NCBI GenBank assembly: GCA_043818055.1
Contig: JBDRGF010000082.1
Location: forward strand, 1 to 11,534
Length of the DNA stretch: 11,534 nucleotides
Reading direction: 5' to 3'
Origin: Pseudomonadota bacterium
GTDB taxonomy: Bacteria > UBA10199 > 2-02-FULL-44-16 > JBDRGF01
Positions 2,597-11,227 of the stretch are shown here, one piece after another (position 1 is the stretch's first letter; each line of letters begins with the position of its first letter). The notes under the pieces are model-generated. The model was not told the DNA's origin, ran no database searches, and worked only from the letters and a program-made list of their open reading frames with translations. The position numbers and the translations under genes are program-made.

Positions 2597-2628
2597 TAGC
2601 AACTTTATCGGAACTTCAACCGATAATA
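2597..2628 (+). promoter_or_regulatory. Sigma-28 (FliA-family)-like promoter upstream of ORF2
   Basis: TAGCAACTT-N12-AACCGATAATA. The -10 part ACCGATAA matches the sigma-28 consensus GCCGATAA at 7/8. The identical motif with identical spacing recurs at 6685-6716. Confidence 0.7.
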
Positions 2629-2644
2629 AGAATGAAACAAAACA

Positions 2645-2650
2645 AAGGAG
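2645..2650 (+). promoter_or_regulatory. Shine-Dalgarno site for ORF2
   Basis: AAGGAG abuts ATG 2651 (0-nt spacing) and lies 6 nt before the in-frame ATG 2657, which favours 2657 as the start. Confidence 0.7.
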
Positions 2651-2656
2651 ATGATC

Positions 2657-5600
2657 ATGTCGGACAATAAACTCTGTCTATTCAGGGACCTTAGTAGAAA
2701 TAAAAATGTAATCGATAGCTGTACAAAACCAATTACTAAAAAAAGACGGGAATTTTTTAAATTCAAGAATCAGGTTGATGAAAAGTTCTGGAAAGGAAAA
2801 CATAAAAATAATAAAGATTCCGAGCTCCTTAAAATGCTCTGTAAAAGGCTTTATAACTCCACTAACTGTGTTATCTCTTATTCTAATGATTGGTGGCGAC
2901 TCGTCAATGAATCTCAAATAAGTGTGAAGCCGACAAACAAATTTGCAAATGTGGCTGATACAAATATCCTAGGACAATTTGAAAGGATCAGAGAGATTCA
3001 TCTTAATTACATTAGAACAAGCGATAGGGAGAAGAGATATCAGGCGATGCGTAAAGCGACTCGTATTCTTTCTAAAGTGCTTCGAAAGACAAGGGGGGGA
3101 GATAAAGGTCGTAAAGAGATAAAAACATCATATGATGCAATTTTGATAGATCTCTCTAAATTAGCCCGCTCCATTACAACCAAGGCGACTCAGGATAAAC
3201 TCAAAGCAACCCAAATGATGCTGATGACGTTCATCCGCATTTTTCCCAAAAAAAAGGAATTGAATTACATGGCGAGATACAAATCTCAAAAAATTGCAAG
3301 AGTCATCAGTGAGATGCGAAGTGAGATGGTGTTGTCATACGAAAAGACAATCGTTAATATCGACAAAACGTATCAACTTCATAACGGTGGAAAGAGCTGT
3401 GGTTTGGTACCGCCGAACCCCTACTTAAATAGTTGTAATCTCAATGCGGTTGATCAGTCGAGGGCGCATAATTCGAGATGGTTTTTACCTGAAAAGTTCA
3501 AGCTGAATGTCAGAAAATATGTCTATGTCGGTCTTGCTGAAATAGTTAAAAAGCCTATGGAGAAGGGGTCTCGTGCTACTGAAACTGCCTTTTTGCCTTT
3601 CAACAAGATAAGCACGCTTAAATTAACACAATCAGACATCGATAACTCGGCCAAGTATACTCCGATAACGATCTCTGCAACGGATAATCGAAAGGGGATG
3701 TATTACAATCTCAATTCGATTTTACGAGTGCAACGTCGTGAATCGAAAACAACCAGTCGTATGGTTGAGAAGAGCGCACTTGAGATGAATGGATACAAAA
3801 AGATTGCTTATGTACAGAAGTCTCTGGATACCGGTCTGCCACGGGTCTTTGCTTACAAAAAACGTTATCCCTGGTCGTTGGGTGCTGCACTCTATAACAC
3901 ATATGACCCGCGTATTCATAATTTGGTTAGGCCTACCTCGATATCACTCTCCCCTTATGAGGCAGCGGCTATTTACCGCATGCGTAGTTCAATGCAAGTC
4001 GGTTTTAGAAATATGGCTCTTGGTGAAAGCACTTTCGATCCGGATACTGCAAATTTTAATAAAAAGGTAAGATACTTTTTTCCGCACAGTGTTCATGAGG
4101 TGATGAAGTTAGCCAAGCGAATCGGTGGTAGAAAGGGAATATTAGCTGCGTTGAAGGTATATAAGGTTTTTGAGTTTTTGGGGCTTTCAGAGCGAATCAG
4201 TCAGAATAAGGCGAAATTAGCTGAGGCATATGTTAAGATTATTGAAGAACATACAGGAAAAACTTTTCCAGCGAATGCTCGAGCAAAAATGATCTCAGAA
4301 GCCAAAAATCGGTTTGAAGCGATCTCGAATGATCTTTGGGATCGCGGTGATCTTGAGGATAGACGTTTTGGGATTAGCATGCAGTGGTTAGGCTTGAGTG
4401 CGAGTTTCGGTTTCTTGGTATATGTGGCCGGTATTCCGCTGTCAAAGAAGGTCTGGAATTATTTCTTTAATAAGCCGGCTAAGCAGATCAACAAGGAGAT
4501 GGACGGCAAATATAAAGCGAATAAACTCGATACACCAGAGGGCTTTAAAAACACCGGGAGAGAGTCTGAACTCAGGAATTTAACAGAATTTTTGCGCAAT
4601 CCCGACAAACAACATATCATCGCCACCGGTTGGACCGGCAGTGGTAAGGATTTTGCAATTGAGTATCTGCTTCAGATGATTGCAAAAGGGGATGAGCGTA
4701 TTCCTGTCGATTTTCGAAAAGCTAAAATCTATCGTATCGATGCGGCCTCCTTTCAGGCGGGAACCGAGTATCGTGGTGCCGTCGCTTCAAAGATTGAGGC
4801 GATTAAAAAATTAGCAAAAGGAGGCGAGAAAGTTGTAGTCTATATGCCTGAGATCGATAAGATCCTGACAGCAGGTGGTACGTCGAGTGGTAACGCAGAA
4901 CAGGTGGCAGGTCTCTTACTCGATGTGATGGAGAATAACAAAAATATTGTCTTTATCGGAACGACGAGTCGAAAAACAATTTTGACCGAGGCTTGTCCCG
5001 ATTTACAGCGCCGTGCTAATTGGCAGCATATAAACGCGCTCCCGGTGGAGGATGTGGTCAGAATCTTACAGAATCAGAAGTCTTTCAAAGAGCAGTGTAA
5101 AAATGTCTATGGATTTGACTATTCGGATAAGCAGTTGGATGAACAGGTAAAACTGGTAGCCCGTTTGACAGAGAAATATGTGCGCGATTTTGGAAAACTG
5201 GATAATGCAGCACCACGATTTAACGCTGTTCGTGATACCTTCTTTACTGCACTCAGTATTGCTAGAAGTAGACATCAGAAAAGTGGTGAGGATAAGTCAT
5301 TATGGAAACTGGAATTAAAAGATATCGTTGAAGCAGTTAATACACAGGCGAAGAATTTACGGACTGGTTGGTCGGAAAAAAATGCAGTGAATGAAGATAA
5401 GGCGAAAGAGGTGATAAATACAAAAGAATGGAACAAAGAAATCGACAAAGAAGGAGTGACCGCAAATATCATGAGTGAACTGCGTTCGGTCGTTGGTGAA
5501 AATAGTGCGCCACTTCTCGCGCGCGTCGCGAATGAGGTTTTAAAGAGCGAAATAGTCAAGATGAATAGGCCTGTTGAAGCGAATTGGGTTGCCATGAAGC

Positions 5601-6625
5601 TTTTGAAAAGATGGTATGAGATGTCGCAACTTGAACGCAGTATAGCATGGACAAGTTTCGACAATTTTAATCCTCAAATTGGCCAGGTTCAGCCCGATTC
5701 AAATGTGCCCTCTCCAACTTTTATAAGGGAAAATGCTGCAAAGATGGCTAGAGAGTTGATTGCTCAGGACATTATTAAAGAGGATGCCATGGAAACAACA
5801 GCGAAAACAACATCATCGATTCAGCAAATACAGAGTCAACAAAGCTCAACTGTGGTTAATGTTGATGTGATAAAGTTAAGAGGGCGAGTAACACAAATGC
5901 TCAAAAATGCAGGAATCACACATCCGGCAGAGGTGGAAATTACAAATTGGAGCGAATATGCAAGGGAATTTCTCAAACCCAAAGATATGAAAAATGGTGA
6001 AGTGAGTGAGGCGTTTTATACAGCAGTCGAAAATGAAATTTTAAAGACTCATGCTAAGGGAAAAACGGTGTTTAAGCATGAAGGAACATGGTATCCAGGT
6101 GAACGAAATAAGGTAATTAGTGCCCTTCAAAATGGTACTGCTCGCCGAACTGAACAAGATTCAAATGGTCCAAAAAATGCCAGACGCAAAGTTCGTGAAA
6201 ATAGAGATGATCTTCCAAGACAGCGAACAAAACATACTCCCGCTAATAAACGTTCCACTGCTCGTCGTTCGGCACTTGAACGTGCAGAGGCGCTGTTGCA
6301 GAGTCAAAAACAAGCCCCGAAAGAGGCCCTAACAGCTGACGTTTTGAACCGTTATCTGATGGCCGCCAGTCGAAACGAGTTCGGCTCTCTCAGACTCGAG
6401 GTGAAGCGTAGCATAATTGCTGATCTCAAGGCCAATATAGAGCAGGGTAGGGCGGCTGATGCTAGTGCGCGTGCCAGTTTGGCTAGCCGTGTTTGGGCTG
6501 AAGAGCTGAAGAGACGCAACTCTCCAAGTCGTCGTCGTGAAGTGCGACGTGCAGAAGAAAGAACACCTGAGCAGAGGGTCAGGCGCGCTGAGAGACTTCT
6601 CAAAATGATGCGCATGGGAAAATAG
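2657..6625 (+). CDS. Large membrane-anchored protein with a single ClpA/ClpB-like (NBD1) AAA+ domain carrying degenerate Walker motifs
   Basis: Region ~4523-5260 follows ClpB NBD1 motif by motif: KLD...GRESEL (ClpB KLDPVIGRDEEI), Walker A GWTGSGKD (4628-4651), pore loop AGTEYRG (4757-4777; ClpB AGAKYRG), Walker B VVVYMPE (4832-4852), IGTT (ClpB VGATT), DLQRR (5000-5014; ClpB ALERR) and VEDVVRIL (ClpB VEDTIAIL). Hydrophobic segment FGISMQWLGLSASFGFLVYVAGIPL at 4367-4441. No Clp N-domain or second NBD recognised. The ORF track starts at 2651. Confidence 0.85.
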   Translation: MSDNKLCLFRDLSRNKNVIDSCTKPITKKRREFFKFKNQVDEKFWKGKHKNNKDSELLKMLCKRLYNSTNCVISYSNDWWRLVNESQISVKPTNKFANVADTNILGQFERIREIHLNYIRTSDREKRYQAMRKATRILSKVLRKTRGGDKGRKEIKTSYDAILIDLSKLARSITTKATQDKLKATQMMLMTFIRIFPKKKELNYMARYKSQKIARVISEMRSEMVLSYEKTIVNIDKTYQLHNGGKSCGLVPPNPYLNSCNLNAVDQSRAHNSRWFLPEKFKLNVRKYVYVGLAEIVKKPMEKGSRATETAFLPFNKISTLKLTQSDIDNSAKYTPITISATDNRKGMYYNLNSILRVQRRESKTTSRMVEKSALEMNGYKKIAYVQKSLDTGLPRVFAYKKRYPWSLGAALYNTYDPRIHNLVRPTSISLSPYEAAAIYRMRSSMQVGFRNMALGESTFDPDTANFNKKVRYFFPHSVHEVMKLAKRIGGRKGILAALKVYKVFEFLGLSERISQNKAKLAEAYVKIIEEHTGKTFPANARAKMISEAKNRFEAISNDLWDRGDLEDRRFGISMQWLGLSASFGFLVYVAGIPLSKKVWNYFFNKPAKQINKEMDGKYKANKLDTPEGFKNTGRESELRNLTEFLRNPDKQHIIATGWTGSGKDFAIEYLLQMIAKGDERIPVDFRKAKIYRIDAASFQAGTEYRGAVASKIEAIKKLAKGGEKVVVYMPEIDKILTAGGTSSGNAEQVAGLLLDVMENNKNIVFIGTTSRKTILTEACPDLQRRANWQHINALPVEDVVRILQNQKSFKEQCKNVYGFDYSDKQLDEQVKLVARLTEKYVRDFGKLDNAAPRFNAVRDTFFTALSIARSRHQKSGEDKSLWKLELKDIVEAVNTQAKNLRTGWSEKNAVNEDKAKEVINTKEWNKEIDKEGVTANIMSELRSVVGENSAPLLARVANEVLKSEIVKMNRPVEANWVAMKLLKRWYEMSQLERSIAWTSFDNFNPQIGQVQPDSNVPSPTFIRENAAKMARELIAQDIIKEDAMETTAKTTSSIQQIQSQQSSTVVNVDVIKLRGRVTQMLKNAGITHPAEVEITNWSEYAREFLKPKDMKNGEVSEAFYTAVENEILKTHAKGKTVFKHEGTWYPGERNKVISALQNGTARRTEQDSNGPKNARRKVRENRDDLPRQRTKHTPANKRSTARRSALERAEALLQSQKQAPKEALTADVLNRYLMAASRNEFGSLRLEVKRSIIADLKANIEQGRAADASARASLASRVWAEELKRRNSPSRRREVRRAEERTPEQRVRRAERLLKMMRMGK

Positions 6626-6635
6626 GTTTTAGATC

Positions 6636-6648
6636 TAACCTGTTGAAA
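6636..6648. promoter_or_regulatory. Putative IHF-like binding site
   Basis: TAACCTGTTGAAA matches YAANNNNTTGATW with one mismatch and starts 49 nt upstream of the second promoter motif. Confidence 0.3.
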
Positions 6649-6684
6649 TAATTATGTTTATTTTTATAAGATACTTGTTGAACG

Positions 6685-6716
6685 TAGCAACTTCAGGGGT
6701 TTTTAAACCGATAATA
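6685..6716 (+). promoter_or_regulatory. Sigma-28 (FliA-family)-like promoter upstream of the paralogue array
   Basis: TAGCAACTT-N12-AACCGATAATA: 20/20 identical positions and the same spacing as the motif at 2597-2628, with a different spacer sequence. Confidence 0.7.
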
Positions 6717-6791
6717 TATGTGAGGGGGAGAAAATACTTATATATACAATAAACCTCATTTAAGAGGGATTTGAGCGTAAAAGAGGATAGC

Positions 6792-8285
6792 ATGGCTAAA
6801 GATGGAAAAATTAAAGGCGTAAAGAATGGGCCATTTCCTCCTGCATCCCGACGGGTTAAGCTGTTACGGAGGAAGAAACCGACCACTCAAAAGGCTCCCA
6901 AAAAGCTTTTCGATCGGAGTAGAATCGAGACCAAAAAATACCCTACCAATTGCCATGTGTCGTGGCCTAAAGGGGTCATTCATACCGAGGTAGAACCTAG
7001 CATAAAATGTGTTAATTTTTTTAAGAGAAGCGATTACTTTCGAATCATTCCTGGCCTTAAGATGTCGCCTGTTGAGTTGCTTACTTTTGCAGAGGATGCG
7101 GGGCTCTCTCTCCAAGATGTCGGCTTCGAGAAATCGGTTATGAATTTGCTCGCCTTGAGGAATGGTAATAAGGCTCAGATTATCATCAACGTTCTCAAGA
7201 AGAATCTCATCGTGCAGCACAAAGGCAAATTGCGAAAGACATTTGTGAAGGATGATATCTACATGCGAGTGATGCTCTTTTTTCGAAATATCACAGTTGG
7301 CAAGGGTGAGTTTAAGTGTGTTGAGTTAGGCCAAGGCAGCTTGGCAGCTGCTAAATGTGGTGACCTGACGCTCAGACCGGTGGGTGATCTGTTGAGCGTT
7401 ATCCCAGGTCTTTTGATGACGCCCAAAGAGGTTCTTGCATTGAACAAAGCCCTTAAAATTTCCGATGAAGATTTTACTCTGAGATATACAGAGACTAATT
7501 TGAAGAGACGTCTATTCCAAGGCGATATGGGTGAGGTTGTAATGAACCTAATCTTTGTTGATTATTTTGTTGAGAATAGAAATGTTGTTTGGAAGCATCT
7601 GGGGGAGGAACGAAGTAAACTGCTCTATCGTCACTTTGACGATGAAAAGTTGGTTGAGCCAGGTTGGTGCAAAAAGACATGGGATGGAATTACAGATCGC
7701 ACAGCTTGGAAGGAATTTTTAATTGGATCTGCAACCCTTTATGCTCTATTTGGTTCTAAAGGAATTATTAGGTGGTGGCACAAAAGGGGTATCAATGATG
7801 ACGATAACGATCAAAAACCGCCTCCACCGTCTCCACCACCTGTAGAGCAGAAGACACCTCGTCCGAAAAAACCGATGTTTCTTCCTGACCCTGAGAGTAG
7901 GTATCGCATTACAGTCGATTGGTCCTATAAACCGAGCCCTGTTTCAGTTTTTAAATCAACTCCGATTCCGATTCACCTCATTCCACACACTGCGCCAGTT
8001 ACGATGGCAAGTGCGTCACCGATAATGGGTGCAGCGATGGCAACAGCTAAAGTCGGTTTGAGTTCTGAGGTCGTTCGTCAAACTGCGAAGAATGTTGCAA
8101 AGGTTGGATTTTGGGCAACACTCGCTGCAGGTGCAGTAAAAGTTTTCAGCACAGTTAAAACTGTTGCGTTTGGATTTGCAAGAGCTTTACCATCGATAAT
8201 GTTTCGCGCTGGTAATGCAGCGGCTAGCGGAGTACTTCCGCCTGTATTTATTGTGCCAGAAAAGTACCAAACATTTAAAGGATAA
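6792..8285 (+). CDS. Paralogue A: hypothetical single-TM protein with two Cys-pair repeat domains, a Pro-rich linker and a conserved C-terminal tail
   Basis: Long ORF. The track starts at TTG 6771, but ATG 6792 follows the SD-like AAGAGGA at 6781-6787. Clear similarity to the next two ORFs. Repeats start at about 6945 and 7311, TM at about 7716-7769, then KPPPPSPPPV, and the tail at 8100-8282. Confidence 0.9.
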   Translation: MAKDGKIKGVKNGPFPPASRRVKLLRRKKPTTQKAPKKLFDRSRIETKKYPTNCHVSWPKGVIHTEVEPSIKCVNFFKRSDYFRIIPGLKMSPVELLTFAEDAGLSLQDVGFEKSVMNLLALRNGNKAQIIINVLKKNLIVQHKGKLRKTFVKDDIYMRVMLFFRNITVGKGEFKCVELGQGSLAAAKCGDLTLRPVGDLLSVIPGLLMTPKEVLALNKALKISDEDFTLRYTETNLKRRLFQGDMGEVVMNLIFVDYFVENRNVVWKHLGEERSKLLYRHFDDEKLVEPGWCKKTWDGITDRTAWKEFLIGSATLYALFGSKGIIRWWHKRGINDDDNDQKPPPPSPPPVEQKTPRPKKPMFLPDPESRYRITVDWSYKPSPVSVFKSTPIPIHLIPHTAPVTMASASPIMGAAMATAKVGLSSEVVRQTAKNVAKVGFWATLAAGAVKVFSTVKTVAFGFARALPSIMFRAGNAAASGVLPPVFIVPEKYQTFKG

Positions 8286-8310
8286 TTTTTGGAGATAAAA
8301 ATATGCCACC
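8015..8310 (+). repeat. 296-bp direct repeat, copy 1 (3' end of paralogue A, intergenic spacer and first codons of B)
   Basis: Ungapped match to 9430-9725 (offset 1415); 15 mismatches counted by hand, about 95% identity. Confidence 0.95.
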
Positions 8311-9700
8311 TGAAAAGGTAAATTTAAATAGAGCAACTTCAAGACCTGTTAAGGTATTCGTTGGGAAGGGTCCAGGGAAGAGTCGTGAGGTTAAAGAGAA
8401 GAGAGCTTCATCACGTGCAACCTCATTCGAGAGGAAGAGTGAATCTTTTAAGTGTAAAGATATTACAGTCAACGGCTTTAGCTTAATTAGGTGTGGAGGG
8501 GTTAGAAGTCGGCGTGCTAGTGCAAAAATGATTCGAATGCCCGATGTAAAATTTATACCAAGTGAGATCGTCTCTTTTGTAAAGGAGATCAATGCTACAC
8601 TTGATGATGTGGGTTATTCCAACGATTTTGAAAATATGAAGGGGCTTTTGAGCGGAAAGCCTGGTGAGATAGTTCTTAACTCATCCTTCGATTTTGTCAT
8701 CAAATATAAAAAAGCAAACTTGATCAAACTACTTGGAGATTCGCGTGTGAATAGGATTCTTGCTGCTTTGAAAAGAGAGAAAAGTACTTTCACATGTAAA
8801 CGTAATGGTGCTGTGAAATGTGGTCCTCTCACATTGAGAAATGCGAATAAAACGATGACGGTTATACCTAAGTTATTTATGATGCCAGCTGAGGTGGTCG
8901 CTTTTAATAAAACATTCGGGTTTACTGATAGAATCTTTTCTTTAAGAAATTCCGCTTCCAATATAAAAAGGATTAACGATGGGAAAACAGGTGAAGTTGT
9001 TTTAAATCTCGAATATGCAAAGGATATTCGAAAGGATTGGAAGAGAGCTGAGAATTTGCTCGATAAGCATTACAAACTAAGTAAAAAACAGCAAAAGAGA
9101 AGTGAGATTCTTTATAGTTTTTTAATACGCAAGCATGCGATTGAAAAAACTATTTATGCAGAGCTCTATGATTGTGCCACTGATGGTAAGATGTGGTTTT
9201 GGTCTTTTATGTATGGTACAATACTTTACATTGTTTTTAAGCCTGAATTACCAAAGGGGCCTCCGTCATCAGGGAGTGATGAACCAAGGCCTGCAAATCC
9301 AACCTCACCTGATAATAATTATCGTAGATTACTTTGGGAGCCTTCAAAGGTGAAATATCCTATTTTTAAACCCGCATCCATTCCTGTCCATGTAGTGCCA
9401 CATACCGTTCCCATCACTATTGCAAACGAGTCACCGATAATGGGTGCAGCGATGGCAACAGCTAAAGTCGGTTTGAGTTCTGAAGTCGTTCGTCAAACTG
9501 CGAAGAAGGCTGCTAAGATTGGATTTTGGGCAACACTCGCTGCAGGTGCAGTAAAAGTTTTCAGCACAGTTAAAACTGTTGCGTTTGGATTTGCAAGAGC
9601 TTTGCCATCAATGATGTTTCGCGCTGGTAATGCAGCAGCTAGCGGAGTGCTTCCGCCTGTATTTGTTGTGCCAGAAGAGTGCCAAACATTTGAAGGATAA
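8303..9700 (+). CDS. Paralogue B: hypothetical single-TM protein, same architecture
   Basis: 465-aa ORF, GGAG at 8291-8294 upstream of the ATG. Repeats start at about 8447 and 8789, hydrophobic segment MWFWSFMYGTILYIVF at 9191-9238, tail at 9515-9697. Confidence 0.9.
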   Translation: MPPEKVNLNRATSRPVKVFVGKGPGKSREVKEKRASSRATSFERKSESFKCKDITVNGFSLIRCGGVRSRRASAKMIRMPDVKFIPSEIVSFVKEINATLDDVGYSNDFENMKGLLSGKPGEIVLNSSFDFVIKYKKANLIKLLGDSRVNRILAALKREKSTFTCKRNGAVKCGPLTLRNANKTMTVIPKLFMMPAEVVAFNKTFGFTDRIFSLRNSASNIKRINDGKTGEVVLNLEYAKDIRKDWKRAENLLDKHYKLSKKQQKRSEILYSFLIRKHAIEKTIYAELYDCATDGKMWFWSFMYGTILYIVFKPELPKGPPSSGSDEPRPANPTSPDNNYRRLLWEPSKVKYPIFKPASIPVHVVPHTVPITIANESPIMGAAMATAKVGLSSEVVRQTAKKAAKIGFWATLAAGAVKVFSTVKTVAFGFARALPSMMFRAGNAAASGVLPPVFVVPEECQTFEG

Positions 9701-9725
9701 TTTTTGGAGATAAAGATATGCCACC
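9430..9725 (+). repeat. 296-bp direct repeat, copy 2 (3' end of paralogue B, intergenic spacer and first codons of C)
   Basis: Ungapped ~95% match to 8015-8310. Confidence 0.95.
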
Positions 9726-11133
9726 AGTAAAGATTGCAAAAGAGACTGTTAAGGTTGCCAAAGGAAAACTAGTGCGACCAAATCAGAAATTGAAAGCTCC
9801 TACGTCTCAGAAAACGAAGGTAGTCCCTAGGTTAAATAAACATAAGCCGATGAAGGAAAAATATACTTGTGGTGCTTTTCATGAGGGGAAAAGAAGATTT
9901 CTTGCATGTGACGGAATTCGTCTTTTTGATCCAAAAAGTAATAAGAAGATGGTTTTAATTCCAGGTGTAAAAATGATGCCGAGTGAAGTGATGCAAATTG
10001 CATGGGAGCTGAATTTGTCATTGTACACCGATATTGGATTTCGTGAGGCTCTGTATAATTTAGGCGAGCAAACGGATAATAAACCCGGTCAGGTTGTGAT
10101 GCGAATAAATTCCACAATTTTAAACGCAATCGATTCAAAGAAAGCGAAGCTGCTTAAAATTCTTGGTAAAGAGCGTTTTAGCTTTTTAAAAACTTTTATC
10201 AATAGTCTGAATTTTCCAAAGAATTCCTTCAAGTGTACGGAGGGATCTTCATCTGCGCATTGCGGCAAATTAAAACTGATGCGTGATGGAAATAATGTGG
10301 TTGTTGTTAAAAAACTTTTTCTCACTCCGAATCAGGTAGTAGCTTTAAACAAGGCATTAAAGCTTCCAATTGGTAATCTATCCTTGCTTCATTCTGATCA
10401 TAATATAAATCGATTGCAGAAAGGAGAGGCTGGCAGTGTAGTCGTTAGTTTGAGTTATGCGAAGTTCATCTATGCAAAATATGATGTTATCGAGAAAACG
10501 ATAGGCTCAGAGGGTGCAAAGCGATTCTATGATTGTTTTGTTGAAAATCAGAAGATTAAAAAAGGATGGTGGGATAGTATTAAGGGTGATCTAACTCCTT
10601 CGAAGGTTTATAGGGGAGTAATGCATCTGTTTGAAACATTTCTAGTGTTTGGTGTTATACTTGGATATGTGCAGCGCAAAAAACCTCCTCCTGGAATGCC
10701 TGGTGGTGGCAATTCAGGCGGAGAAAACTCCTCATCACCAGAGAATGGTAATTATAAACGATTACTTTGGGAGCCTTCAAAACAAGCTGCTGCAGCGAGT
10801 CTTACGCTAGCAACCGTGGCAACACATAAAGTTGGACATACTCAAAAATTGACTATGCAATCAAGTGCTCGTGCATCATCAATCGCATTCGGAGGAGCAG
10901 CAGTTGCAACCGGAGTTGTGGCTAAAGAGGTTGTGAAAAAAGCCGCCAAGATCGGTTTCTGGGCAACCCTTGCAGCAGGTGCAGTCAGCGTATTCAGCAA
11001 GGTAAAAACTATAGCCGTTGGTGCGGCAAGGGTTTTACCAAATTTAATGTTGCGTGCAGGAAACGCCGCCGCAAACGGAGTTCTTCCTCCAGTCTTTATT
11101 ATCCCAGAAGAATTTCAATCCCACGAAGGCTAA
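9718..11133 (+). CDS. Paralogue C: hypothetical single-TM protein, same architecture
   Basis: 471-aa ORF, GGAG at 9706-9709 upstream of the ATG. Repeats start at about 9862 and 10228, hydrophobic segment VMHLFETFLVFGVILGYV at 10618-10671 followed by QRKKPPPG, tail at 10948-11130. Confidence 0.9.
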   Translation: MPPVKIAKETVKVAKGKLVRPNQKLKAPTSQKTKVVPRLNKHKPMKEKYTCGAFHEGKRRFLACDGIRLFDPKSNKKMVLIPGVKMMPSEVMQIAWELNLSLYTDIGFREALYNLGEQTDNKPGQVVMRINSTILNAIDSKKAKLLKILGKERFSFLKTFINSLNFPKNSFKCTEGSSSAHCGKLKLMRDGNNVVVVKKLFLTPNQVVALNKALKLPIGNLSLLHSDHNINRLQKGEAGSVVVSLSYAKFIYAKYDVIEKTIGSEGAKRFYDCFVENQKIKKGWWDSIKGDLTPSKVYRGVMHLFETFLVFGVILGYVQRKKPPPGMPGGGNSGGENSSSPENGNYKRLLWEPSKQAAAASLTLATVATHKVGHTQKLTMQSSARASSIAFGGAAVATGVVAKEVVKKAAKIGFWATLAAGAVSVFSKVKTIAVGAARVLPNLMLRAGNAAANGVLPPVFIIPEEFQSHEG

Positions 11134-11163
11134 GATCTAATTATCCCATTCCACGCATTCACG

Positions 11164-11189
11164 GGCGGGCTACCAACCCCGCCTTTTTT
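11164..11189 (+). terminator. Rho-independent terminator ending the paralogue operon
   Basis: Stem GGCGGG (11164-11169) / CCCGCC (11178-11183), 8-nt loop, followed by TTTTTT (11184-11189), starting 30 nt after the stop of paralogue C. Confidence 0.8.
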
Positions 11190-11227
11190 CATCCTGGACT
11201 GATTTTTTTATTACCACCCTCATTTCA

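Follow-up and report, generated by a model that had tools for sequence, protein, structure and literature searches.

The window examined here is the whole 11,534-nucleotide contig JBDRGF010000082.1 of assembly GCA_043818055.1 (complete contig C82 of genome G000, which is 2.93 Mb and 93.6% complete). It encodes a Clp-like ATPase with a predicted membrane helix, ORF2 (open reading frame 2), followed by three tandem paralogues, P3, P4 and P5. Sequence analysis identified two protein families, the ATPases and their partners, together with linkage of their genes in relatives, a common promoter motif, conserved ATPase motifs, and an asymmetry of cysteines and charges around the helix. Judged from sequence, the two families are a conserved and undescribed module in a regulon of the type III protein secretion system (T3SS), and the mechanism proposed for it is inferred. 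ORF2 and P3-P5 may form an inner-membrane complex in which the ATPase ring acts on the partners' tails, a possibility we place somewhat short of an even chance. An earlier note on this stretch had proposed one co-regulated module of this kind; its observations were confirmed in part and its interpretation was supported in part.

The features of ORF2, the P3-P5 array and their promoter motifs are as follows.

2597..2626, + strand: sigma-28-like promoter motif GCAAC-N16-CCGATAA, upstream of ORF2
2657..6625, + strand: ORF2, 1322 amino acids; Cys-containing N-terminal region, one helix, one AAA+ domain of Clp D1 type, charged C-terminal region
3794..4111, + strand: ORF2 N-terminal module, common to the ATPases of relatives and, more distantly, to the partner family (profile searches)
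4385..4441, + strand: predicted transmembrane helix of ORF2, amino acids 577-595, with 4 Lys/Arg among the 15 residues after it
4637..5017, + strand: ORF2 ATPase motif block
4637-4651, + strand: Walker A, GSGKD
4757-4777, + strand: pore loop, AGTEYRG
4832-4858, + strand: Walker B, VVVYMPEID
4955-4972, + strand: sensor-1 region, IGTTSR
5000-5017, + strand: arginine fingers, DLQRRA
6685..6714, + strand: second copy of the promoter motif, upstream of the P3-P5 array
6792..8285, + strand: P3, 497 amino acids; basic low-complexity start, two Cys-pair modules, Pro-rich linker, Ala/Gly amphipathic tail
7713-7769, + strand: P3 helix, marginal
8084..8310, + strand: recently homogenised tract, with its copy at 9499-9725, spanning tail, stop, spacer and the start of the next gene
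8303..9700, + strand: P4, 465 amino acids, laid out as P3
9191-9238, + strand: P4 helix, the most marginal of the array
9718..11133, + strand: P5, 471 amino acids, laid out as P3
10618-10671, + strand: P5 helix

The ATPase family and its partners

ORF2 contains one Clp D1 domain with a Tyr in its pore loop, as the earlier note had proposed. Its start was picked by the AAGGAG at 2645-2650; an alternative ATG lies at 2651. Pfam matched one AAA stretch only, at amino acids 657-781, and the ClpA model TIGR02639 matched amino acids 614-838 (E 7e-20) with 70.9 bits against an equivalog cut-off of 993. The best PDB matches were Clp proteins including ClpA (E 1e-28 to 2e-25), and HSP101 chains were also matched. 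A Clp family was the sole match in PHROGs. No M41 protease domain behind a classic-clade AAA domain was matched in ORF2 by Pfam at E up to 1 or by NCBIfam at E up to 0.1, and the PADLOC-DB 2.0 anti-phage models returned 0 families for ORF2, P3-P5 and 4 relatives. A TraD match (E 7e-5) was interpreted as a helix plus P-loop and rejected. The motif names follow the Clp D1 literature and were assigned on an alignment to ClpA.

A direct search with ORF2 amino acids 230-900 at E 1e-15 returned only the window's own protein; it was insensitive, missing P0017 as well, a full-length orthologue (31% over 1172 amino acids) with the N-terminal Cys pairs kept. A profile built from the ORF2 ATPase and nine relatives identified 37 representatives at E ≤1e-30 among 1.84 billion. 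The top 32 members (P0001-P0032) lack a D2 Walker A pattern, and most of them have a helix about 40 residues ahead of the ATPase domain. Clp_N of Pfam matched neither ORF2 nor the 32 rows of alignment A8. In a 31-row tree, the branch that separates the 14 family rows from the others (canonical Clp, 14 rows; a second subfamily, 3 rows) has support of 100/99; a larger quick tree of 173 rows was also made. These genomes also encode ordinary ClpA/ClpB, as separate genes. Several ATPases (P0003, P0017, P0077) carry a hydrophobic C-terminal extension, and in G075 a divergent type of helix-plus-Clp-D1 gene occurs as three tandem copies (L064:373-9671) with no partner match.

The Walker motifs of ORF2 (GSGKD; VVVYMPEID), missed by the earlier note, are non-canonical, and so are those of its family. 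Among 46 aligned members the Walker A Lys is present in 45; Asp comes next in 39 members and Thr in one. None of the 46 has the Walker B Asp (Ser 19, Pro 16, Glu 6), whereas the catalytic Glu is present in 46/46 and the arginine fingers are kept in 42/46 and 44/46. The pore-loop position is Tyr in 18 members, Phe in 4, Ile in 10 and Leu in 8. In canonical Clp proteins the Walker A Thr and the Walker B Asp touch each other near the Mg ion; in the aligned ORF2 family these two residues look reciprocally exchanged. A second subfamily (L060:8454-11129, L023:1006-3645, L081:2808-5822, L055:173-4660, L059:398-3073), found in G007, G015, G020, G026 and one metagenome contig, has the same layout and outer module, an insertion, and canonical or near-canonical Walker motifs (GK[T/S], DE). 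Both subfamilies occur together in G015 and in the metagenome contig.

These substitutions, together with the frequently aliphatic pore loop, could mean that D1 is a nucleotide switch or scaffold instead of a motor. The ATPases and partners would then act as receptors: their variable outer modules would sense a target and pass a signal to the inside. Divergent partner N-terminal modules on homogenised or shuffled tails would suit such a role. We consider this improbable, as the Lys, Glu and arginine fingers are near-invariant and the second subfamily retains canonical GK[T/S] and DE behind the same outer module. A lead to a GAF identity for the ATPase N-terminal domain (Atlas 0.90, 104-114 shared features) was at chance level and was discarded.

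In relatives, the ATPase gene is followed by genes for proteins of 270-540 amino acids that resemble one another, with a Cys module, a helix, a Pro/Gly linker and an Ala/Gly or hydrophobic tail. P3, P4 and P5, whose mutual identity is 33-41%, likewise combine two copies of a Cys-pair module (Cys/LTxxE), a helix, a Pro-rich or Pro/Gly linker and an Ala/Gly tail, and lie after the ATPase gene. They had no meaningful match in Pfam, NCBIfam, PHROGs or PADLOC, and Pfam gave no consistent family for the N-terminal module of either ATPases or partners. A search with P4 returned only the window's own proteins, as did alignment A1 in 60 relatives; P4 had no usable match in Atlas (TM up to 0.31), and direct BLAST of ORF2 against P3-P5 gave no significant match.

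Profile methods were used to place P3-P5 in the partner family. The initial profile comparisons were weak (probability 2-51%). A partner profile made without window sequences, run on 5280 ORFs, matched only P5 (E 2e-4) and P4 (E 0.017), on the linker and tail, while module-only profiles matched P3 and P4 twice each, at both repeats (E 0.5-1.2, ranks 2-5 of 5280). A window-only profile run on 361 other proteins ranked five partners first, and its top 10 included 7 partners and 2 ATPases (E 0.003-0.67). In profile-profile comparisons the window repeats scored 31.8 (78%) against the partner module (decoy maximum 15.9) and 32.9 (74%) against the ATPase module (decoy maximum 18.9), and the partner module scored 28.3 (50%) against the ATPase module (decoy maximum 16.8); 60 block-shuffled decoys were used per comparison, and convergence on a common strand-helix pattern is still compatible with these scores. 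ORF2 itself ranked first of the 5280 ORFs with an ATPase-module profile made without window sequences (E 0.0016). The sequence motif that the earlier note had suspected in both ORF2 and the paralogues therefore holds at the level of families. Four tests are concordant, none of them strong singly: the E-values are weak one by one, the concordance among independent tests is strong, and P3-P5 probably belong to the partner family.

Other genes occupy the same runs. A set with a short N-terminal region, usually a helix, and a long C-terminal region (L025:1475-3598, L037:5345-8062, L082:9351-11297, L060:12218-13822, L026:12354-13730, L043:5170-6267), some of which have an N- or C-terminal end in common with the neighbouring ATPase, is possibly a third component. 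Proteins of about 590-880 amino acids with several Gly-rich hydrophobic segments lie 3' of a partner (L022:7093-8866, L069:2807-5452, L043:11745-15533); by eye, these or the ATPase extensions could be translocon- or pore-like. One partner tail (L030:1072-1875) contains an ATGVG-DD motif, which we take to resemble the hydrophobic segment of polymorphic toxins. In the second locus of G021 (L069:1552-2728), a TAG stop interrupts a partner 3' of an ATPase with degenerate motifs.

Linkage of the two families was examined in 93 genomes of the class; a search of the phylum at 85% completeness brought none from outside the class. Alignment A9 matched in 15 of the 93 genomes. A9 contains P3-P5 and seeds taken from ATPase neighbourhoods, so the matches to those seeds are circular. 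Five partner loci were new, and 4/5 of these blindly found loci (G007:C48, G018:C98, G019:C355 and G021:C137) adjoin an ATPase-family gene, while G016:C3 does not. In the order, which comprises 22 genomes including G000, a partner was found in 14; 14/14 of these have an ATPase-family gene, and in 13 the two lie in the same co-oriented run, although these genomes are kin and not independent samples. The linkage test proposed with the single-module idea was thus passed. The ATPase is divided over two contigs in G019 and stops at a contig edge in G016. G014 repeats the window layout, with the ATPase followed by tandem two-module partners. Neither family was found in the order genomes G001, G003, G009, G010 and G012. 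Outside the order, the two genes are adjacent in G044, and in G022 a weak partner (E 1.5e-4) lies four genes away; no partner match was found for divergent Clp-like proteins in G023, G026, G032, G037, G038, G051 and G075. In six relatives (L025, L026, L036, L037, L038, L060) the ATPase locus lies near a gene that we take to be gyrA, suggesting a stable chromosomal position instead of a mobile element.

Linkage could also be historical. The partners would then be a duplicated 5' half of the ATPase gene, retained in a regulon island, and the proteins would act independently. The module and the position of the helix are indeed common to both families, some order genomes have the ATPase without a partner, and other orphan genes variably occupy these runs. 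The partners are nevertheless a separate family with its own consensus, adjacency is maintained in four of the order's families and in G044 of another order although the chromosomal surroundings differ, and the ATPase is present in every genome that has a partner. We give this explanation little credence.

The earlier note had described an invariant C-terminal tail of the paralogues. This did not hold. The homogenised tract is 94% identical over 202 nucleotides, its spacers are nearly identical, and 41/45 four-fold sites are identical between the P3 and P4 tails; because the identity continues through the spacer into the next start, we attribute it to recent gene conversion. The P4 and P5 tails are 69% identical in amino acids with only 6/20 four-fold sites the same, which argues for selection as well. 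Both processes appear elsewhere, conversion in the G014 pair and selection in the G021 pair. P0155 is an exact chimera of the two G021 partners joined at the linker, either a recombinant or an assembly artefact. Partner tails differ from genome to genome: a profile of the window tail matched only a G017 partner (E 0.004), missing a G018 partner that is alike by eye (AAKIGxW...PVF). As read from these alignments, the partner pattern is one of variable outer modules on a genome-specific constant end.

The promoter motif and the type III secretion regulon

The bipartite promoter that had been noted ahead of both ORF2 and the array was confirmed. The pattern TAGCAACT-N14/16-ACCGATAA has 2 matches in the window (2597-2626, 6685-6714) and 0 in 200 shuffles. 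Its -35 box differs from the sigma-28 TAAA consensus. Within G000, [GA]CAAC-N-CCGATA was found at 43 sites with spacer 15, 43 with spacer 16 and 8 with spacer 17, against a background of 0-8 (mostly 1-5, about 3) for each other spacer from 8 to 29. Genome-wide there are about 80 sites (for example L034:675 and L034:2786), so that a shared promoter does not by itself identify a module, contrary to its earlier use. Each of 5 relatives has 13-40 copies (reversed control 0-1), and 4 of these have no match for the ATPase or partner family. The motif lies at most 260 bp upstream of 21/24 ATPase-family genes checked and 7/18 partners. In a separate count it precedes 39/303 ORFs in the relatives' loci, and 25/39 are ATPases or partners. 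At several promoters (contigs C14, C18, C60, C111, C130, C156, C164, C165) the identical sequence GCCTCGCACAC precedes GCAAC, often about 150 nucleotides from a contig end, which suggests a repeat element terminating at the -35 box.

Two of the motif sites are inside a T3SS cluster that encodes SctJ, L, N and Q, an LcrH-like chaperone and a FliA/WhiG-like sigma factor. This places ORF2 and P3-P5 in the T3SS regulon, and it supports the suggestion that a sigma-28-like regulon would contain substrates exported without Sec signals. The motif would be recognised by the cluster's own sigma factor. No flagellin was found in a search of G000. SctV is encoded away from the cluster in G000 and was matched in 21/22 order genomes, 18 above cut-off. 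No secretin was found near SctJ in G005; in G000 the cluster reaches the end of its contig, and the 3 secretins of G000 are in type II secretion, type IV pilus and Tad contexts. A search for the SctF needle gave no match, but it gave none in any control genome either. On this gene content the T3SS looks Myxococcus-like and apparently secretin-less. G000 also has a Tad-type cluster.

Further genes lie at or beside motif sites. Out of 85 such genes, 26 large ones without a signal-like start were tested, and 18/26 had no Pfam match; no ankyrin family was matched in G000. Regulon-adjacent genes with known parts (L083-L100) encode an SNF2 helicase plus DUF488, FHA, transglutaminase-like, kinase plus 5'-nucleotidase, SLOG, DEAD helicase and heptosyltransferase-like proteins.

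Predicted topology, proposed mechanism and flanking genes

None of ORF2, P3, P4 and P5 has an N-terminal hydrophobic stretch, as judged by hydropathy, in agreement with the earlier view that they lack a recognisable signal peptide. Helices were scored by the maximum Kyte-Doolittle hydropathy over 19 residues. The helix claimed for all four proteins is clear in ORF2 (1.62) and P5 (1.74) and marginal in P3 (1.15) and P4 (0.83); similarly, the basic residues claimed to follow it are present in ORF2, while P4 has 1 Lys/Arg only in the 15 residues past the helix. The mean is 1.72 for the ATPases and 1.55 for the partners, compared with 2.76 for 13 hand-picked housekeeping membrane proteins. According to the available part of PMC6110835, helices of intermediate hydrophobicity are typical of T3SS membrane substrates. 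Absence of a signal combined with such a helix is thus found here, by hydropathy and against hand-picked controls, and so is co-regulation, since the motif is common to ORF2, P3-P5 and the SctJ/N/Q cluster genes.

Cysteines are 5-10 times denser N-terminal to the helix than C-terminal to it. The values per 100 amino acids before and after the helix are 2.0 and 0.21 in 28 ATPases (two others were skipped) and 2.3 and 0.47 in 21 partners. The number of Cys ahead of the helix is even in 21/28 ATPases and 18/21 partners; P3-P5 have 5 each. Lys/Arg are enriched after the helix (p 7e-6 for ATPases, 0.005 for partners). The two asymmetries imply that the N-terminus is out, in an oxidising compartment, and the C-terminus in. 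DSBA-family proteins are encoded in the genome.

Sec is poor at moving a domain of 130-580 residues ahead of the first helix without a signal peptide. The proteins have such a domain and no signal, which makes the co-regulated T3SS their natural exporter by our reasoning. Choice of membrane, binding, ATP hydrolysis and substrate are likewise inferred. ORF2 and P3-P5 would each be exported N-terminus first through the apparently secretin-less T3SS, and export would halt at the helix, most simply in the producer's own inner membrane. Unlike the hairpins of effectors, a single span flanked by large domains points to stop-transfer in the course of export, and the observed orientation would result if the N-terminus led the way through the producer's inner membrane. 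Disulfide-bonded N-terminal modules would then be periplasmic and the ATPase domain and partner tails cytoplasmic, with ATPase and partner associating through their homologous modules and helices. In Clp rings substrates enter on the N-domain side. The helix occupies the position of the Clp N-domain, so the ring entrance would face the membrane and a polypeptide would be pulled out of or across it into the cytosol. The likeliest substrate would be the partners themselves, gripped by linker and tail. Pulling might assemble or reset a contact structure, with the variable partner modules supplying target specificity, and the machine probably serves contact with prey or host cells.

Several observations count against this complex. 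The P3 and P4 helices may not be membrane-spanning; the P3-P5 tails (hydropathy 1.34-1.43) exceed both of them. The housekeeping comparison depends on controls chosen by hand. The module-only scores on which membership of P3-P5 partly depends are weak. No partner match accompanies the ATPase in G004, G005 (100% complete) and G015, so the pair is not obligate; the partners of G016 are on another contig with no ATPase beside them; and the counts come from related genomes. The pore loop is aromatic in only 22/46 members, and the Thr-to-Asp change in Walker A with the missing Walker B Asp could cripple hydrolysis. We know of no documented lateral release from a T3SS into the membrane. For lateral release by the translocon, the available part of a review reports no data (PMC9993115).

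The ATPase and partner families could alternatively be T3SS effectors inserted into a prey or host membrane, where the ATPase would extract or unfold target proteins with the target's ATP and the amphipathic partner tails would disturb the membrane or aid insertion. This is unlikely in our estimate. In its favour, the promoter is shared with the T3SS, 18/26 tested regulon-site genes lack a Pfam match, the helices are of intermediate hydrophobicity, and the tails are Ala/Gly-rich and amphipathic. The Tad-type cluster supports it further, since the needle-less T3SS of Myxococcus works with a Tad pilus in prey lysis, according to the available parts of PMC12075869 and PMC10433427. A folded ATPase would, however, have to cross the target membrane while a domain of 130-580 amino acids remained outside, and a topology of one span between two large domains suits the producer's own inner membrane at least as well. 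The lack of a secretin near SctJ in G005, of a small immunity-like gene in the window's ORF list, and of an ankyrin family, which suggests no eukaryote-style effector repertoire, also speaks against it.

A bolder proposal, which we regard as quite remote, is that the module is an ATP-driven importer of prey-derived proteins. ATPase and partners would be installed in the inner membrane by the needle-less T3SS, exported N-terminus first and held by stop-transfer; the weakly hydrophobic helices would make a channel, variable periplasmic modules would catch proteins derived from prey, and a Clp ring whose Walker residues are reciprocally exchanged would draw them into the cytoplasm. If true, this would give both membrane-protein biogenesis a new route and a predatory or parasitic bacterium a new feeding mode.

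The remaining features of the window flank the module.

1-2397: ORF1, 798 amino acids, Lys-rich orphan with a low-complexity start
11163..11194, + strand: intrinsic-terminator-like hairpin (7 pairs, 6 G-C) and T run, 3' of P5
11385-11534: first part of a HEPN-domain gene (Pfam E 1e-13), beyond the terminator

Homologues of ORF1 were found neither in G000 nor in the fetched loci of relatives. Its initial 141 nucleotides overlap the end of contig C102, so C82 and C102 probably join. The hairpin is supported solely by its location, as a scan found 11 terminator-like hairpins against a shuffled mean of 10.2. Nothing in the window ties the HEPN gene to the module. In one groundwater metatranscriptome run, 23 contigs match at ≥99% identity and between them touch all five ORFs, and one of them bridges the P3/P4 junction; DNA origin is possible and the run may be the assembly's own source, so these matches were not counted as support. 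A second run of the same study had 0 matching contigs.

Comparison with known systems

The combination of genes, which the earlier note did not recognise from known systems, matched no described system. In searches of the open-access literature no title or abstract opening contained such a module; supplements and subscription papers were not covered. By its domains, ORF2 is outside both class 1 Clp and FtsH. It resembles class 1 Clp/Hsp100 proteins (ClpA, ClpB, ClpC, ClpV) in D1 fold and motifs, but it has no D2 and no Clp N-domain match, with a helix and outer module in that place, and its family differs by GKD, by loss of the Walker B Asp and by its separate branch (support 100/99). Asp after the Walker A Lys together with absence of the Walker B Asp, in a Clp D1 joined to a membrane helix, would be a new AAA+ active-site arrangement.

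FtsH, Msp1/ATAD1 and Bcs1 belong to the classic AAA clade; in each of them an N-terminal helix tethers one AAA+ ring, whose entrance is at the membrane. By analogy ORF2 probably works like FtsH, Msp1 or Bcs1. It differs from them in being derived from Clp D1, in having no protease domain match and no signal sequence, and in having partners with the same outer module; its family would be a new kind of membrane extractor or translocase. HSP101 of the Plasmodium PTEX complex is a soluble protein with two ATPase rings, and the pore on which it docks, EXP2, is separate. The likeness to PTEX is a Clp-family ring moving a polypeptide through a membrane with dedicated partners, as proposed here; no homology to PTEX partners was seen in searches of the window and family proteins.

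Tir, SseF/G and the Chlamydia Incs also lack a signal peptide and have helices of intermediate hydrophobicity, as far as the available part of PMC6110835 describes. The membrane effectors listed in the accessible part of PMC9993115, these among them, form hairpins of two helices, and both of their termini lie in the host cytoplasm. In the window proteins, by contrast, the helix separates a Cys-rich domain from an ATPase or a tail.

The closest secretion system is the needle-less T3SS* of Myxococcus xanthus, which is alike in its inner-membrane export apparatus, LcrH-like chaperone, absence of an adjacent secretin in what was searched, and Tad cluster. Here, by difference, a candidate regulon is defined by a promoter motif together with a FliA/WhiG-like sigma factor encoded within the cluster. 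The portions available of the T3SS* literature make no mention of such an ATPase-partner module; in them the substrates are stated to be unknown (PMC10433427) and the function of the needle-less T3SS is left open (PMC3459982). The regulon defined by the promoter is a candidate substrate list for a needle-less T3SS, including dozens of large orphan ORFs, and the module, which can be cloned and tested, gives a handle on the lifestyle of an uncultured small-genome phylum.

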